Of a stretch of DNA of 64,000 bases, positions 1,054-43,566 are shown piece by piece; position 1 is the stretch's first letter; each line of letters begins with the position of its first letter. The DNA lies in IMG/VR virus record IMGVR_UViG_3300013383_000017, positions 1 to 64,000 of that record; one strand, given 5' to 3'. This DNA comes from a virus. Its lineage: Duplodnaviria > Caudoviricetes. The position numbers and the translations under genes were made by a program. The notes beneath the pieces were generated by a model. It searched no databases and was not told where the DNA came from. It was given only the letters and a program-made list of their open reading frames with translations.

Positions 1054-1419
1054 TTACTCGTCTTTGACTTTCATCGCGGTTTTAGACGGGTTTTTGAACT
1101 TCGGCAATTCTGCAAACATTTTTGCCTTTCCCTTGACCTCCTCTTCGCGATGCTCGTTACCCTTAATCCTAATCTTATTATTGTTCTTTAAGCGATACCA
1201 CATAAAGAACTTTTGATGCTCATTAATCCAAAATTCTCGCTCTTCTTTATCTAACTCCCTAAAAGGGAAAGCATACAACATTGTATGCTCTCTCTTTATT
1301 CCTCTCAATAGGTTCTCACGGAACTTTGGGTTCTTTTGGTATTGGCACAACAATTCATAGAACCTATCGTACCATGGCTGACTTGCTATATATCTTGCTA
1401 CATCTTCGTATGTTCTCAT
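1054..1419 (-). CDS. Hypothetical protein (QPW-DRFY family, also present in part B)
   Basis: N-terminus (YIASQPWYDRFY...F..WY) resembles ORFs 45001-45552 and 44331-44912. Confidence 0.7.
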   Translation of the reverse strand: MRTYEDVARYIASQPWYDRFYELLCQYQKNPKFRENLLRGIKREHTMLYAFPFRELDKEEREFWINEHQKFFMWYRLKNNNKIRIKGNEHREEEVKGKAKMFAELPKFKNPSKTAMKVKDE

Positions 1420-2087
1420 TTGCCAATCATTTTAACTTCACTGACCATATTCACATTCCCCGTTGTTTCATTCGGGATAAGACTGACAACAGGAAAGCGA
1501 CTTGCTCTCGGATTGTCAGACTTTACAAAGGTAACATTTAAGTCGCAAAGAACGCCACTGATGTGCCCATTCTGCTCTAACAAAGCATCGAAAGTATCTC
1601 GGATGTGTGGGATGCTACTCGCTACGGCTTTGGTTTCAAAAGTCCATACGCCGTAAATCTTATCCACCATAGGCAACACTACATTGAGCGTCAGTGTTAC
1701 CTGCCATCCTGTCTTACTCGGATACTTCTTCTCTATTTGCTCCATAAGGTTAGGCGTATCGTTAGTATTGCACTTAACCCTGCGTTGTGCTTTCTCGCTC
1801 CATACCCAAAATTCCTCTCCATCTCCCTCTGCTATCTTCTTACCTGCATTGTCCCTATATACATAGTTCTCCCTGCATACTTGTTCGGGGTCGTCACTCG
1901 GAAAGTACACAAGCAAAGTACTTGCATGCGGATACACCGCTTCAAAGAGTGGCGCATACTTACCCGTCGCCACAAAATAGTCTATACTCTGCGGAAAGCC
2001 CCTATCGCTCTTAATCCCGCACTTTATCTTACCTAATCGAGGAGGTAGCGGACTGACCGCTACTTCCCTTTTAATTCTTCCGTTCAT
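1416..2087 (-). CDS. Gp3-like / recombination-directionality-factor-like protein (probable recombination partner of the exonuclease)
   Basis: PRLGKIKCG..GFPQSIDYFV N-terminal motif; adjacent to the exonuclease. Confidence 0.6.
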   Translation of the reverse strand: MNGRIKREVAVSPLPPRLGKIKCGIKSDRGFPQSIDYFVATGKYAPLFEAVYPHASTLLVYFPSDDPEQVCRENYVYRDNAGKKIAEGDGEEFWVWSEKAQRRVKCNTNDTPNLMEQIEKKYPSKTGWQVTLTLNVVLPMVDKIYGVWTFETKAVASSIPHIRDTFDALLEQNGHISGVLCDLNVTFVKSDNPRASRFPVVSLIPNETTGNVNMVSEVKMIGK

Positions 2088-2093
2088 AAACTA

Positions 2094-3170
2094 CTAAAAT
2101 AGTGTATCGAAATCATCATCTAATGTCGTTTCATCTACTTCTTCTGCGTCTACCTCTGCCCTATGTTGCTTTACAAGGTCTGCAAGATTATAGACTTGTA
2201 CATTGTTGCCTGCATCCGCTTTGAGGTCTATAACTCCACTGATGTTCACTATCTTCCTCTCTTTCTCTTCCTCGCAAGCATACAAAGCCAATATATAAGG
2301 CACTTTTGCTATTGCAGGGTTCTCCGTCTGCTCCTCGAAGTTGTAGGATGGTTGCTTCTTTGCAGTGCCCATCCACTCCTTTGGTGCAATGTTAAATATC
2401 CTCTCAATTGGAGTATCGGGGAAACTCTCATTCCACATTTGGCGATAGATGTCAAGTTGTTGCGCATAACTATCGTAAAAACCCTTTTTACCGCTCTTAA
2501 AGTCGATTATAGCGTCGAGCCTTTGCCCGTACTTCGCTTTCGCTTGTGCGACCTTTTTAGCGTCCTCTCCTGCCTTTTCTACTGCTTCCCTTTCCTTGTC
2601 TATTGGATACTCTCGGATGTTCGCCACGAGGTCTATCATCCCTGCACATCCAAGTGTCGGACTGCATAGGGCAATCTCCACTGCGTATGGACGCACATCG
2701 TAATCCCTCATCCACTTTGCAAATGCTACAATATCTGCCTTTGCTTCCTCTATATGGCTCTCAACAAAGCCGTAAGGTAGTTTCTCCCTCTCTACATATT
2801 TGTCGAGTAAGTCCTTAATCTCATCAAGATTGAGGGTTTGAGCAATTATCAACTTCTCGATAAGAGAGTGTAGGAATGTACCATAGGATGCACGCTCGTT
2901 AGTGTAGTCCTCTGCGGCTTCCTTGCCAAGTCGCATCTTCCACTCTGTGAGTACCTTGTTTTCAGGTGCACACTTGTGGAGAATAGTAGTGACAGACGGG
3001 AAGAACACGGGTTCTCCGTCTGCGTTGAAGAAGTAATAATACCTCTCGCCCTTTGAGTTTAGTTGGTAGAGTTTATACGCTACCTCTTTTAGTTGCGTTG
3101 CGTTGAAGTACAACGCTTTCATCTGCTCGGCAGTCGTGCCGAAAGCAATTTGTAATTGACCTTTTTCCAT
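2094..3170 (-). CDS. PD-(D/E)xK phage exonuclease
   Basis: Motifs PSVTTIL, GTFLH, AVE, AGMIDLV, IIDFKSG, QLDIY; acidic tail. Confidence 0.85.
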   Translation of the reverse strand: MEKGQLQIAFGTTAEQMKALYFNATQLKEVAYKLYQLNSKGERYYYFFNADGEPVFFPSVTTILHKCAPENKVLTEWKMRLGKEAAEDYTNERASYGTFLHSLIEKLIIAQTLNLDEIKDLLDKYVEREKLPYGFVESHIEEAKADIVAFAKWMRDYDVRPYAVEIALCSPTLGCAGMIDLVANIREYPIDKEREAVEKAGEDAKKVAQAKAKYGQRLDAIIDFKSGKKGFYDSYAQQLDIYRQMWNESFPDTPIERIFNIAPKEWMGTAKKQPSYNFEEQTENPAIAKVPYILALYACEEEKERKIVNISGVIDLKADAGNNVQVYNLADLVKQHRAEVDAEEVDETTLDDDFDTLF

Positions 3171-3433: not shown

Positions 3434-3457
3434 AACTTTATATGTTTTTATTTTTTG

Positions 3458-3489
3458 CAAAGGTATGACAAAAATTTGAATTATGCAAA
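3458..3489 (-). promoter_or_regulatory. Promoter TTTGCATAATTCAAA...TACCTTTG
   Basis: Matches the Bacteroidota -33 TTTG / -7 TAnnTTTG consensus. Confidence 0.8.
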
Positions 3490-3497
3490 TAATTTAG

Positions 3498-3588
3498 AAA
3501 AAAACCTCCCATCGTGTCGTGCCGATAGGAGGAAAACATAAAACACTTATATACATTTAAAGATTTTGGAAGAGCATTCACTGCTATT
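3498..3588 (-). ncRNA. Candidate sRNA 3 (~90 nt)
   Basis: -7 box TATCTTTG at 3601-3594; ends in hairpin CCTCCTATCG/CGATGGGAGG plus T7. Confidence 0.6.
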
Positions 3589-3602
3589 CTCAACAAAGAT
3601 AT

Positions 3603-3689
3603 AAAAAATAAAGCAAAGAGCATTCTCTGCTGTTTGCTTTTGTCAGTTAACACATTAATAATCCAATAACCATTTGTATATGAATAGTC
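3603..3689 (-). ncRNA. Candidate sRNA 2 (~87 nt)
   Basis: -7 box TACCTTTG at 3702-3695; ends in hairpin AAAGCAAACAGCA/TGCTCTTTGCTTT plus T-run. Confidence 0.6.
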
Positions 3690-3704
3690 TTTTGCAAAGG
3701 TAAT

Positions 3705-3828
3705 AAAAAACGGAAAAAGTTGCAAGCGAGGCGACTTTCTCCGTTATACCTTTATCATCTCGACAGAGGATTTGAAGATGCGTTAAAAATTTGAATGTTA
3801 TGAAAAAATGTAATTCAATTCAATTTGC
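3705..3828 (-). ncRNA. Candidate sRNA 1 (~125 nt)
   Basis: -7 box TACCTTTG at 3841-3834; ends in hairpin ACGGAGAAAGTCGC/GCAACTTTTTCCGT plus T-run. Confidence 0.6.
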
Positions 3829-4299
3829 TATTGCAAAGGTAAACAAATTATACGAAATTCCAATACCTATGTAAGGTTTTATTTCACCACAATACCCAAT
3901 TCCTACTTGTAAGCCTACCGACATTTTTGGTTTTTCAAACCTTGTAGTGGTTCGATAAATAGTTGTGGGATACACTTCTATACTCTCTAATCGTGGCTCG
4001 TATCCACTGACTACTGCCTTGTAAGTAGTGTCAGCATAAATTTTTATTTCTCGTGGCAAAACTACATAGGTAGTGTCTTTCCGCACTATCGTATCTCTTA
4101 CTGCTACCCACATAGTGTCCACTACTCTGTGCTCGATTTCTACGGGTTTGTAGAGGGTTATAGTATCTCGGACGATAGTTTCCTTTACTTCGGTCTTTAT
4201 CTCCGTTTTAGGCGGTCTAAAATAGGCAAAGAGGGGCAATGCTACCACTGCCCCCAATACCATACCAAAGACTATGTTCTTTATTTCAGTAAAAGACAT
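3820..4299 (-). CDS. Spanin-like lysis accessory membrane protein
   Basis: N-terminal TM segment, VRDTI/DT repeats, C-terminal beta strands (GLQVGIGY..PYIGIGISYNLF); lies in the lysis module. Confidence 0.6.
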   Translation of the reverse strand: MSFTEIKNIVFGMVLGAVVALPLFAYFRPPKTEIKTEVKETIVRDTITLYKPVEIEHRVVDTMWVAVRDTIVRKDTTYVVLPREIKIYADTTYKAVVSGYEPRLESIEVYPTTIYRTTTRFEKPKMSVGLQVGIGYCGEIKPYIGIGISYNLFTFAIAN

Positions 4300-4593: not shown

Positions 4594-4962
4594 TTATTCG
4601 TAATAATCCCATATTACTTCTTGTGGCAAATTCTCGTCGAAATCCGCGTGGATGAAAGTCTTGCCTATGCCTATCCTCGTGCAATAGTTGTCCAACAAGG
4701 CTCGTATTATCTTGAACCGATTGGCACTGCTCGTGCATTTTATATCCAATGCCGTCCCTCTCGTGTGTGCAGAGTTGCCACTCCTGCCGTGTTTCTTATC
4801 CCATTCTACACTTCTATATGCAGAGTTAATTACAAGCGGTATGCCTGCATCCTCCCTCACTCGGTCAAAGAGTGCCATTGCATCTGCGTCCATATCTTGT
4901 AGACTACACGGAGGGTCGCACCTGCGGAACTCCTTTTCACTAAAATACTTGCTCTTAATCAT
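4594..4962 (-). CDS. Endolysin, peptidase M15A family
   Basis: INSAYRS, SAHTRGTALD and FIHAD zinc-ligand motifs. Confidence 0.9.
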   Translation of the reverse strand: MIKSKYFSEKEFRRCDPPCSLQDMDADAMALFDRVREDAGIPLVINSAYRSVEWDKKHGRSGNSAHTRGTALDIKCTSSANRFKIIRALLDNYCTRIGIGKTFIHADFDENLPQEVIWDYYE

Positions 4963-20143: not shown

Positions 20144-20157
20144 ATTCCAAAGTTACT

Positions 20158-20204
20158 AAAAAAGGAGAAAGCAATCCCCTTTTCGGTTCATACTTTCTCC
20201 CTTT
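20158..20204 (-). terminator. Terminator after the capsid gene, abutting a TAACTTTG promoter box (20155-20148)
   Basis: GGAGAAAG...CTTTCTCC stem with T-run. Confidence 0.55.
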
Positions 20205-20232
20205 GAAAGACTATTTTAATTTGTCCCTACAA

Positions 20233-30089: not shown

Positions 30090-30232
30090 AATTCCAATCA
30101 TAATTACAATTGCATATAAAGCTTTAATTAATATGAGAGTTCTATTTGTTTTTTCAGCCCTTTATTCAAAGCCTTTATTATCAAAGCATTAAGAAAGCGG
30201 ATGTAAAAAAGTTGAAAAAAAGTTAAAACATA

Positions 30233-30328
30233 TTTGCATAATTCAAATATTTGCCCTACCTTTGTTCCCAGATGAAGCAAACAAGCCCGCTTGCAAGTGG
30301 CTTTGAAAAAGTTAAAAATAATGTTATG
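30233..30328 (+). promoter_or_regulatory. Early promoter/leader cassette, copy 1
   Basis: TTTGCATAATTCAAA..TACCTTTG plus leader hairpin AAGCCCGCTTGCAAGTGGCTT. Confidence 0.8.
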
Positions 30329-30568
30329 AAGTACAAAGCGAATTTCTTTTTTTATGGGATCGGGTTTTTGATCCCTATTGAGGGCAATAATAAAGCTCAA
30401 TTGAAGAGCTATTTATTGCAGACAATAAGGGGATTTTTAACCCCAAATTCGTCCTCGTCTTATTGGATAAAGGACGAAAAAGGAAACGAAGAAATCGGAT
30501 ATATATCGATGTCCAAAAAAGGGCATTTTACTTATGCCACATTACAACCCTTTAATATAAACCATTAA
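30326..30568 (+). CDS. Early hypothetical protein (start MKYK)
   Basis: Follows the promoter cassette. Confidence 0.65.
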   Translation: MKYKANFFFYGIGFLIPIEGNNKAQLKSYLLQTIRGFLTPNSSSSYWIKDEKGNEEIGYISMSKKGHFTYATLQPFNINH

Positions 30569-30920: not shown

Positions 30921-31217
30921 GTTTTAGCCCCCTTTTATTTTTTTCAACCCTTTGTGCCTTTTATGCTCTATGCCTTACAAGCCACAAAAACCCGTCTTAA
31001 ATCGATTTATAAGCCTTTGCGGTACTCTTATACCTTTTAGGCTTTTTATCCCTTTATTCGGGCGTTTTTGAGCCTTTGGACTTTTACCCCCCCTCGTACA
31101 TGTTATGCGTATGTGCTATTATACCAGACGCTCAATGTAATGGGTGAATTTTTACCCTCCATAAATTTTTAATTTGCAGTGACTTAAAATTAATGTGACA
31201 GAAATTTTTAGTTTTTT

Positions 31218-31314
31218 TTTGCATAATTCAAATTTTTGCCCTACCTTTGTTCTCAGATAAAGCAAATAAGCCCGCTTACAAGTGGCTTTGAACAGTTAAA
31301 ATTTTAATGTTATG
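31218..31314 (+). promoter_or_regulatory. Early promoter/leader cassette, copy 2
   Basis: Near-identical to 30233-30328. Confidence 0.8.
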
Positions 31315-31488
31315 AAAAAAAATGGAAATGAAATGAGTTTATTTTTGTCCGATTTCGATAAAAGAAATGGATCACAACTTGAACAAGCCATCACAGAAGC
31401 CCACACCATTTATATAAATGGTAGTGGATTTTGGAGTTGTATCCGCATTTTGGCAGACTCCGGCAAATGCATAAAAGTTGTAAGATAG
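31312..31488 (+). CDS. Early hypothetical protein (58 aa, MKKNGNEM...)
   Basis: Not in the ORF track; starts at the cassette ATG. Confidence 0.55.
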   Translation: MKKNGNEMSLFLSDFDKRNGSQLEQAITEAHTIYINGSGFWSCIRILADSGKCIKVVR

Positions 31489-37236: not shown

Positions 37237-37353
37237 TCCGCTATGGTAGGACTTGAACCTACATCCCTCGCAAATGCGTGCCTGCTTAAAATTTAACTTC
37301 ACTTAAAATTCCCACGCACTCCAAGTGTTCATACCAATTATACCACATAGCGG
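37237..37353 (-). ncRNA. tRNA-like RNA with expanded anticodon arm
   Basis: Acceptor stem CCGCTAT/ATAGCGG, D-arm with TGG, T-arm GTAGG-TTCAAGT-CCTAC; ~60-nt insert in place of the anticodon arm. Confidence 0.7.
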
Positions 37354-38034: not shown

Positions 38035-38467
38035 ATTTCCTCCTTTTTTAATGGTTATTAAATTGCCGTCTTTCCGTGCTGCCAAATACACTAACTCTCT
38101 TCTCCACTTTGGTAATGCATCTCTCCCTTGTGGTGCAGCAAGTTTTTATTAAGAGTTCTTGCAACTCTTTATCTTTCTTAAAAATGTCTGTCTTTCCAGA
38201 CTGCCAAATGCACAAACCATCTTGTCCGCTCTGATAATGCATCTCTTTCTCACGGCGCAGCCCCTTGTCACCCTTCATGAGCACTGGGATAACTTTAAGG
38301 TTATCATTCTACCTTTTTTTAGATGGTGAGGTTTCCATCACACGACTATTTCAAGTCGTCTCCAAGATTACACATGCTATTGGGTATTTATAGCACCTTG
38401 ACCTCTCGGAGTATATTTTTCAGGATTTCAATCCGTCATTTTTCAGACTTCCGCGTTGTTTGTATTG

Positions 38468-38499
38468 CAAAGGTATAACGAATATTTGAATTATGCAAA
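38468..38499 (-). promoter_or_regulatory. Promoter TTTGCATAATTCAAA...TACCTTTG
   Basis: Same motif as the promoters at 3458, 30233 and 31218. Confidence 0.8.
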
Positions 38500-38504
38500 T
38501 ATTT

Positions 38505-38918
38505 TTAGAAAAAATTATACTCTTTTTTTAACTTTTTTATCGTGACATCATTCTTCTCCTTGATTTTCATACCCTTACGAGTTGGTGCGTGCTCCCATAA
38601 ATTATGACAACTTATACACAACATATTCGTATTTCGTGGGTCGTGTGCCATTTCGGGGTGCGCCCCCCTCGTTAAAATATGGCTAACATTAAATGCAGAC
38701 GGCCAATATAACGGCTTTCCACACTCCTCGCAGATATGCGGCTTGTGCTCTATTACCCATTTGTAAAACTTCGCATTGCCCTCCGCGTTATTCTTGCCAA
38801 AAAGCCGTTTCTGCACGCTTATCCGCAACTCGTGGCTCATTGGTAGTCTTTCGTCTATAAGTGGCTCATAGCCCCTCTTTTGGGCGTATAAATACTCCTC
38901 GTCAGTCGTTAATAGCAT
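38505..38918 (-). CDS. HNH / NinG-like nuclease
   Basis: CEECG, SHI, N..MLC.SCH motifs. Confidence 0.7.
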   Translation of the reverse strand: MLLTTDEEYLYAQKRGYEPLIDERLPMSHELRISVQKRLFGKNNAEGNAKFYKWVIEHKPHICEECGKPLYWPSAFNVSHILTRGAHPEMAHDPRNTNMLCISCHNLWEHAPTRKGMKIKEKNDVTIKKLKKEYNFF

Positions 38919-40147: not shown

Positions 40148-40539
40148 ATCCTAAACCAATTTGCTAAATCGTTATACCCCATTACTCTTAATATATTCTG
40201 CAATTCGTGTACGGATGCAAAAGTTGCTACCTCATTACTGCCATGCCACATATTATCGATAGATGAGAAAATAACATAAATGTCCGCATTGAGTTCTTTT
40301 TTGATGAAAATTGGTTCACTACATGTCCAATAATCAATACACTTAATTAAATTCTTATCTAATATATCAGGAGTAACAACTATTTTACCGACTTTCTCGA
40401 TAGGGACATCCTCGATAGCATTTATTGTTTCTATCGCTATGTAATTTTTATTTATTCCCTCGACCTTTCCGTATAGATAATTAGATGTCATTGTTTCAAA
40501 TTCCACCCAATCTCCTACCATCAACTCAGTTATTTTCAT
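40144..40539 (-). CDS. YopX-like hypothetical protein (tandem paralog)
   Basis: LMVGDW...SVHELQN. Confidence 0.65.
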   Translation of the reverse strand: MKITELMVGDWVEFETMTSNYLYGKVEGINKNYIAIETINAIEDVPIEKVGKIVVTPDILDKNLIKCIDYWTCSEPIFIKKELNADIYVIFSSIDNMWHGSNEVATFASVHELQNILRVMGYNDLANWFRI

Positions 40540-43452: not shown

Positions 43453-43481
43453 TTTTTATTATTTTTATTGTTTATAATTAG

Positions 43482-43566
43482 TGCTCCCAGTGAGACTCGA
43501 ACTCACACGACCATTTCTGATCAAGGGATTTTAAGTCCCTCTTGGCTTCCATTTCAACATGAGAGC
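43482..43566 (-). tRNA. tRNA-Leu (anticodon TAA)
   Basis: GCTCTCA/TGGGAGC acceptor, AGGGA-CTTAAAA-TCCCT anticodon arm, long variable arm, GTTCGAGT T-loop. Confidence 0.9.

Follow-up and report, generated by a model that had tools for sequence, protein, structure and literature searches.

A 386-nucleotide (nt) gap between two gene modules of a gut Bacteroidota phage (positions 3434-3819, minus strand) holds a run of interlocked promoter boxes and terminators that we read, with about even confidence, as a cluster of two or three autonomous genes for start-blocking small RNAs (sRNAs), the first of which, RNA1, would be aimed at leaders of the phage's own early island. The window, that is, the whole stretch of DNA analyzed, is the first 64 kb of the 141,886-bp virus record IMGVR_UViG_3300013383_000017. 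The gap lies at the junction of the late and early modules and is flanked on both sides by minus-strand genes, with the lysis module upstream and an early recombination/replication operon downstream. A preliminary description had proposed a tandem array of promoter-sRNA-terminator cassettes at this place, with RNA bodies antisense to translation-start regions.

All four of the minus-strand boxes in that description lie where it had put them (P1 to P4, Table 1). Each fits the -7 element of sigma-ABfr, reported as TAnnTTTG and refined to TAHHTTTG, with transcription starting ~5 nt past the G (PMC6847099), and each has a non-G base at both variable positions; the predicted starts in Table 1 use the spacing from the same study (G at -5). 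The three best boxes are exact copies of the 11-mer TACCTTTGCAA, which occurs exactly four times in the window, three of them within 387 nt on one strand, and the remaining box, P3, is the weaker TATCTTTG. [quoted passage not shown] P4 belongs to a promoter family of five copies, the others starting at 38465, 138791, 31215, and 30231, with the invariant core TTTGCATAATTCAAAT-N-TT...TACCTTTG (3453-3503, 38465-38514, 31215-31249, and 30231-30264 in the window and 138791-138850 in the record). The same family drives a counter-oriented early island at 30.2-31.9 kb, and the conservation of its spacer points to a duplication of recent date or to a site for a regulator that the early promoters have in common.

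The three terminators likewise fold where they had been described. Each is a hairpin followed by 6-7 U, as expected of an intrinsic terminator, and the complementary strand has no U-run. T1 and T2 end 6-8 nt ahead of the next -7 box, and the CTTGCA in the loop of T1 (3726-3721) takes exactly the place that TTTGCA holds as the -33 element in the promoter family of this phage, which is the -33 position of P2; this bears out the earlier view that the first two terminators occupy the spacer of the next promoter. A rule-based scan found five such interlocked terminator-promoter pairs in the 142-kb record, two of them in this array. The anatomy, with its elements clustered more than chance would give, supports compact, autonomous-looking cassettes of promoter, short body, and terminator. 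We also observed another interlocked strong terminator and TAACTTTG/TAAATTTG box inside the structural module (20155-20210, minus strand), which is kept in three phages (G001, ~31260; G002, ~9963) as a single-copy use of the same design.

Relatives were gathered through homologues of the DUF6808 protein and the exonuclease encoded on either side of the gap, giving ~ten distinct related phages, from metagenomes; two scans of 185,000 species genomes yielded no prophage relatives. The gene order is kept (endolysin, DUF6808, gap, small gene, exonuclease, Gp3-like), and the gap holds the same kind of array, with one to five units, on either strand, and with different content. There are one to two units in L014 and L127 (DUF6808 identity ~75%), two to three in L126, L015, L128, and L146 (67-76%), three consecutive interlocked units in L142 (~50%), and four to five interlocked units in L144 and L150 (~50%); L147, L148, and L149, with lower DUF6808 identity, have short gaps and no array. 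At the P1 site, co-oriented arrays keep TAACTTTG or TATCTTTG, and inverted arrays have no box. The arrays of L144 and L150 stand on the strand opposite both flanking operons, and these two phages also carry one co-oriented unit adjoining the early promoter. Arrays so placed oppose both neighbors and therefore cannot be mere punctuation of those operons; the flip in orientation speaks for units that are genes in their own right, as opposed to punctuation or a leader belonging to the operons beside them. In L146, an IS605-family TnpB (Cas12f-like) element (1276-2436) has inserted at the array's head, immediately behind the DUF6808 gene.

What the relatives have in common is a terminator-promoter module of ~43 bp. 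Its plan is a hairpin with a lower stem of 6-7 bp, in most cases an internal loop of one base on either side, an upper stem of 4 bp, and a GNGA(A) loop, followed by six or seven T, one purine, TAHHTTTG, and then YAG. In several modules, an apical GTTGTGA puts TTG 23 nt ahead of TA, at the -33 position, which accounts for the conservation of the apex. The scan for modules was rule-based, MAFFT having aligned the two hairpin geometries inconsistently. Over eleven hairpins, including T2 of the window, 98% of cells are paired and 8 of the 10 pairs show compensatory changes (0/500 shuffles). The T2-P3 module has a homologue in L142 with the same AGCAGAGAATG apex and TATCTTTG box and a different lower stem. 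Among the closest relatives, modules are 89-100% identical and flanking genes 86-94%, and the bodies (63-94%, median ~75%) differ mostly by indels; bodies between modules diverge faster than the flanking genes. Conserved scaffolds with variable bodies and a variable number of units, which the preliminary description had expected of related phages, are therefore what the locus displays, along with inverted arrays; the array is kept as a locus and evolves by cassettes.

An iteron or origin function was ruled out, since the repeated hairpins covary rather than hold a fixed sequence. Hits to the shared hairpin motif CTGTCGGGAGATAC in viral contigs beyond the known relatives look like chance: they have no shared AT-rich hairpin context, and one unrelated sequence recurs on many contigs. 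Homology between the segment after the stop codon in the window and that of the relatives at 75% identity was dropped, as only TTTTCAT is shared. RNA3 has a 5' mini-hairpin (AGCA-GUGAA-UGCU) that is a partial copy of the T2 apex. A 16-nt direct repeat, AGCAG(A/T)GAATGCTCTT (3569-3584 and 3614-3629, minus strand), joins the T2 apex to the 5' end of RNA3 and is evidence for an origin of the units by partial tandem duplication.

We compared the bodies with the start regions of genes by means of a position weight matrix (PWM) built from 87 gene starts of these phages, with which 19 non-redundant bodies were scored, boxes and hairpins excluded. The matrix has an A-rich context with A at -3, a start context reported for Bacteroidota (PMC6847099). 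The best scores on the complementary strand of the 19 bodies sum to 90.5, versus 17.6 +/- 16 for dinucleotide shuffles (0/500), and those on the sense strand sum to -32.9, versus -24 for shuffles. Start-like hits in the arrays number 7.9 per kb antisense and 0.5 per kb sense; genome-wide in these phages they number 0.2-0.85 per kb on the non-coding strand and 4-5 per kb on the coding strand. Taken unit by unit, the anti-start score is significant for RNA1 (p<0.002), borderline for RNA2 (score 5.0, p=0.09), and not significant for RNA3 (p=0.21). The claim that the complements read like initiation regions thus holds for the 19 bodies as a class and for RNA1, is borderline for RNA2, and is not borne out for RNA3. 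The distance between the predicted 5' end and the anti-start triplet is 5-30 nt, the triplet standing ahead of the terminator; GibS and FopS, two sRNAs of Bacteroides, also carry their seeds in a 5' segment ahead of the terminator (PMC11697453). A likeness of UCAUAA to the anticodon loop of the initiator transfer RNA (tRNA) was dismissed as the trivial complement of the start context.

The match of RNA1 to an early-gene start at 31298-31320, and its partial match near 30311-30330, were both confirmed. The first spans -14 to +9 of the start of gene g31312, with 22 of 23 nt complementary to the RNA1 core (BLAST E ~1e-4; 0/300 and 0/400 shuffles). Predicted duplexes of the whole body reach -31.4 kcal/mol with 31270-31340 and -30.5 kcal/mol with 30285-30350, versus -15.6 +/- 3.3 kcal/mol for shuffles (0/500). 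The plus strand at 3747-3812 can be aligned with the early cassette over its leader, beginning at a degenerate TACCTTTA box and reaching the ATG, and because of this alignment the match is most simply explained if RNA1 arose as an inverted partial duplicate of an early promoter-leader cassette. Such an account concerns the origin of RNA1 and does not prove that it has a function. Across the start, the core is identical to the early cassette at 22 of 23 positions, versus ~50-65% in the flanks, which favors maintenance of the core over uniform decay without proving it.

When targets were sought in all the related phages, most results fell short of significance. A second, independent case is unit F2 of L144, with 13 perfectly complementary nt across the start of that phage's own first early gene (0/300), and its orthologue in L150 has 10 nt across the start (p=0.03). 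Unit C3 of L015 matches 22 of 25 nt across the start of g30582, a gene of the window; this is significant against the four early-island start windows (0/400) and falls short against all phage DNA (p=0.07), and only ~10 nt match L015's own orthologue of g30582, which is 38% identical. None of the four early-island proteins has a PHROG match. We also observed that the body of L144 unit F3 resembles an early-island leader of G001 (40240-40263, 24 nt) in the sense orientation (p ~0.02, uncorrected for multiple tests); arrays may thus take up fragments of leaders in both orientations, or this likeness may be AT-rich chance.

Table 1. Promoters, terminators, predicted RNAs, candidate targets, and neighboring genes (window positions)
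Feature	Position	Strand	Remarks
P1, -7 box	3834-3841	-	TACCTTTG, extended form TACCTTTGCAA; predicted start ~3829
P2, -7 box	3695-3702	-	TACCTTTG(CAA); predicted start ~3690
P3, -7 box	3594-3601	-	TATCTTTG, weak -33; predicted start ~3589
P4, full early-type promoter	3453-3489	-	TTTGCA -33, conserved spacer, TACCTTTG at 3465-3458; drives early operon
T1, terminator	3703-3745	-	stem 3745-3709, 12 bp, 13-nt loop, then U-run; -15.7 kcal/mol
T2, terminator	3602-3640	-	stem 3640-3610, two-tier hairpin, GAGAA loop, U-run to 3603; -12.8 kcal/mol
T3, terminator	3498-3532	-	stem 3532-3505, 10-bp GC-rich, 8-nt loop, seven U at 3504-3498; -17.1 kcal/mol
Predicted RNA1, ~127 nt, or 3' untranslated region of late operon	3703-3829	-	fold z=-3.0
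RNA1 body	3747-3826	-	antisense to early-island leaders
RNA1 core	3786-3808	-	22/23 nt complementary to 31298-31320
Predicted RNA2, ~88 nt	3602-3690	-	from fold; UAUUCAUAU near 5' end
Predicted RNA3, ~92 nt	3498-3589	-	from fold
g31312 (58 amino acids [aa]), leader and start	31270-31340	+	candidate RNA1 target
g30326 (80 aa), leader and start	30285-30350	+	second candidate RNA1 target
M15 endolysin	4594-4962	-	upstream of DUF6808 gene
DUF6808 gene	3820-4299	-	last of lysis/late module; PF20647 E=4.5e-23, phrog_26448
First early gene, 86 aa	3173-3433	-	synteny kept in relatives
PD-(D/E)XK exonuclease	2094-3170	-	after 86-aa gene
Gp3-like gene	1416-2087	-	after exonuclease

From the anatomy and the statistics above, we infer that the units are transcribed, yield discrete RNAs, and act by base-pairing. 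Host RNA polymerase with sigma-ABfr would start ~5 nt past each TAnnTTTG box and would stop 60-130 nt on, at a tetraloop-capped intrinsic terminator. The U-run of that terminator would abut the next -7 box and its apex would supply the next -33 element, such that a single ~43-bp module would end one RNA and begin the next. Each RNA would have a mostly unstructured, U-rich 5' segment followed by the terminator hairpin, which is the layout of GibS and FopS, and the 5' segments, typically with (U)UUCAU(A/U), could pair across an A-rich start that lacks a Shine-Dalgarno sequence and so block initiation. RNA1, whether P1 drives it or it forms the end of the late lysis transcript, would probably repress the duplicated small genes of the early island. 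The targets of RNA2 and RNA3 may lie in the host or in other phages. The units would in effect be "RNA morons" at the junction of the late and early modules.

It is also important to point out the findings that weigh against a cluster of start-blocking sRNA genes. P1 overlaps coding sequence, namely the final codons of the DUF6808 gene, and because of this position RNA1 could equally be the 3' untranslated region of the late operon; P3 has no good -33 element. The similarity of RNA1 to the early cassette may be that of a decaying inverted duplicate. RNA2 and RNA3 show no complementarity above shuffles in the 142-kb record (84/300 and 225/300, respectively) or in the relatives, such that the claim of target complementarity beyond AT-matched shuffles stands for RNA1 and falls for these two, and an exact search of IMG/VR with 18-mers of their cores returned unrelated coding-region matches only. 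Own-genome targets were non-significant for 21 of the 22 unit bodies, in runs that masked, for L150 and L153, the start of the first early gene. Duplex prediction (RNAduplex) between the bodies and 225 crude start windows of the record also gave nothing above shuffles, with a set of windows that missed open reading frames (ORFs) of <60 aa, including the candidate RNA1 target. In the inverted arrays, the antisense strand is the A-rich, coding-type strand, on which start-like hits are common anyway, and the anti-start signal, strong for co-oriented arrays, is less telling there. The bodies tolerate indels between near-identical phages (the RNA3 body has a 4-nt deletion in L125), which fits relaxed constraint too. 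Finally, Rfam has no family hit at the locus or in the relatives' arrays (cmscan, E<=5 or E<=1), and the FopS model RF04319 gives nothing in the array, its best score in the record being <=14.5 bits, elsewhere, with a threshold of 56 bits for a model that takes in the R1' seed. Because of this last result, the units are not FopS members by the Rfam model.

The main rival explanation is pure transcriptional punctuation, in which stacked terminators shield the early operon against read-through of late transcription, promoters are duplicated along with the terminators, the bodies serve as spacers and have no function, and what RNA1 has in common with the early cassette is left over from an inverted copy. 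We consider this possible, if somewhat unlikely. Insulation would suit a locus that lies exactly at the late/early boundary, modules that clearly duplicate as units, bodies that evolve fast and by indels, the lack of above-chance targets for RNA2 and RNA3, and an alignment at 3747-3812 (plus strand) that takes in a whole early cassette with its degenerate box. It fits poorly with the arrays of L144 and L150, which point against both flanking operons, and with a strand-specific anti-start signal that survives dinucleotide shuffling. The decay of RNA1 is moreover non-uniform, its core standing at 22/23 versus ~50-65% in the flanks, and five tandem units exceed the needs of insulation. Antitermination, a different RNA function, and protein coding are minor alternatives.

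A bolder extension of the sRNA reading, which we regard as unlikely, is that the terminator-promoter module is a portable scaffold that captures antisense pieces of 5' leaders by local duplication or inversion, forming a fast-evolving, multi-guide silencing array. These leaders would have their source in early genes of the phage itself, in competing relatives, or in the host. By analogy, such an array would have a CRISPR-like logic, with a constant module and a swappable guide, and would act by blocking translation starts; phages of this family would use it for temporal shut-off and for warfare between related phages. The better fit of L015 unit C3 to g30582 of this phage than to its own orthologue is a hint in this direction. 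The preliminary description had likewise proposed a guide-swappable antisense battery. The constant scaffold, the variable bodies, and the match of RNA1 to the phage's own early starts agree with that proposal, and the target searches for RNA2 and RNA3 do not.

It is also conceivable, at distinctly low probability, that the RNAs are real and serve another role, for example as decoys that occupy a host defense protein or an RNA-binding protein (RbpB, for instance), by mimicking sRNAs of the host, or as primer or R-loop transcripts for a replication origin nearby. The recombination/replication module is next to the array, and in the relatives DnaB follows a few kb further along; most bodies have no identifiable target, and FopS-class sRNAs bind RbpB (PMC11697453). 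Against this, the sequence indicates no specific protein site, terminator and promoter function explains the conserved parts, and the cumulative GC-skew profile has no turning point near 3.5 kb. The anti-start signal and the three start-region matches fit base-pairing better.

Alternatively, the array could be an antitermination or attenuation leader of the early operon, with polymerase from P2 or P3 stopping at T2 or T3 unless modified by a phage factor. A precedent is pR'-tR' of phage lambda, with its short 6S transcript and Q antitermination. We find this quite improbable. The window does have promoters and short terminated transcripts, as predicted, directly upstream of the operon and co-oriented with it. 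However, the full-consensus P4 after the last terminator makes the upstream promoters unnecessary, L144 and L150 have arrays that run opposite to the early operon, so that co-orientation does not extend to all members, and no Q-, N-, or put-like element was identified.

The preliminary description had taken the RNAs to be without ORFs. A 95-aa TTG-initiated ORF (3438-3725, minus strand; 59 aa in its ATG form) does run through the units, free of stops although the DNA is AT-rich, and two indels in L125 (net -3) do not close it; yet it spans two terminators and three promoter boxes, the 4-nt deletion and 1-nt insertion in L125 replace ~17 residues as a compensated frameshift, and a search of 5.8 billion proteins gave no relative of its product, nor did PHROG give a match. 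Plus-strand mini-ORFs of ~7-27 aa, read by hand, differ in length and frame among the relatives: that from the first plus-strand ATG of the preliminary description has 24 aa here and 4 aa in L125, owing to a 1-nt insertion. No promoter is oriented toward them, and the conserved mini-ORFs that would have told against an RNA function are not found among the relatives. It is thus unlikely that the array codes for protein, whether through the 95-aa frame or the mini-ORFs, and we give this the least credence of all.

The locus belongs to a phage of ~46 kb and 42% GC, and the record in which it lies has two parts. GC content is ~42% at ~137-141.9 kb plus 1-40.7 kb and ~27% in the rest, a crAss-like block of ~96 kb, with the drop near 40.7 kb and the return near 136.5 kb (record positions). 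The 42% GC part also stands alone as the 46.6-kb contig ERZ808292 NODE-33. Because L125, a 46.6-kb metagenome contig, holds the 42% GC phage by itself, almost base for base, the 142-kb record is probably a joined assembly of two phages, one siphovirus-like and one crAss-like. A blastn search of the locus against INPHARED phages returned only one unrelated-labeled 4.6-kb record, which covers the lysis genes and not the array. Some observations lie outside the array. Rfam calls a tRNA at 37238-37352 (minus strand; 35.3 bits, above gathering), with which ARAGORN disagrees, its sole tRNA being tRNA-Leu(TAA) at 43481-43566. In G002, read on the minus strand at 44129-44075, five tandem GCGTCCAG repeats and then two ATGTCCAG stand beside a C-run at the contig end and are likely a packaging or terminus signal.

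Regulatory RNAs of Bacteroidota phages are almost unstudied, and these phages shape the most abundant human gut bacteria. If the units are expressed, Bacteroidota phages carry clusters of FopS/GibS-style sRNAs that block start codons, and do so with uncommon economy, since a single ~43-bp element serves as terminator and promoter at once. The pairing of RNA1 with early-island leaders would be a concrete, testable case of trans-antisense control of phage early genes. With its conserved scaffold, variable bodies, and changing copy number and orientation, the locus may offer a natural system for the origin of new sRNA specificities, and the module could serve as a compact part for synthetic biology in Bacteroides.

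Several known systems resemble the array in part. Phage morons are promoter-gene-terminator insertions between modules. The units are like them in being self-contained, in lying at a module junction, and in varying among relatives, with the IS605/TnpB element of L146 at the same spot; they differ in that their cargo is non-coding and that neighboring units share terminator and promoter DNA. The sar RNA of P22, OOP of lambda, and c4 of P1/P7 are short RNAs encoded by phages, which time or silence the expression of a phage gene by pairing around its start. Both sar and OOP are cis-antisense, made from the strand opposite their target, whereas RNA1 would act in trans from 27 kb away. None of the three is known to form arrays, whereas RNA1 is one of several unlike units.

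In type II-C CRISPR arrays with repeat-embedded promoters (Flavobacterium, PMC10309648), a promoter-bearing module likewise alternates with variable guides, and the likeness is one of analogy only. The modules here are non-identical, having diverged with compensatory changes, each unit has a terminator, the bodies range over 27-160 nt, and the neighbors are lysis and recombination genes, not cas genes; we therefore do not count the locus among CRISPR arrays. Clusters of sibling sRNAs such as LhrC1-4, Qrr, and OmrA/B (PMC4211561) also consist of adjacent duplicated genes, each with its own promoter and terminator. Those siblings keep a common seed and body, whereas the array keeps its scaffold of terminator and promoter and its bodies are unrelated.

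The closest design is that of GibS and FopS (RF04319), which in B. thetaiotaomicron prevent translation by pairing beside the start codon, with one FopS copy found in a phage (PMC11697453). These sRNAs have a sigma-ABfr promoter, a single-stranded 5' seed, and a Rho-independent terminator, and on the predicted folds, the position of the anti-start triplet, and the PWM test, the array appears to have the same architecture. Multiple copies and pairing beside the start codon of messenger RNAs that lack a Shine-Dalgarno sequence, the latter predicted here, are common to both. To call the locus an undescribed system, as the preliminary description did, is therefore too strong. The array nevertheless has no sequence or covariance-model similarity to GibS and FopS. 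FopS paralogues have one common seed, are scattered over the chromosome, and have a SusC transporter as their target, whereas the units of the array have differing seeds, stand in tandem, physically interlocked, and have at least one candidate target in the phage's own early genes.

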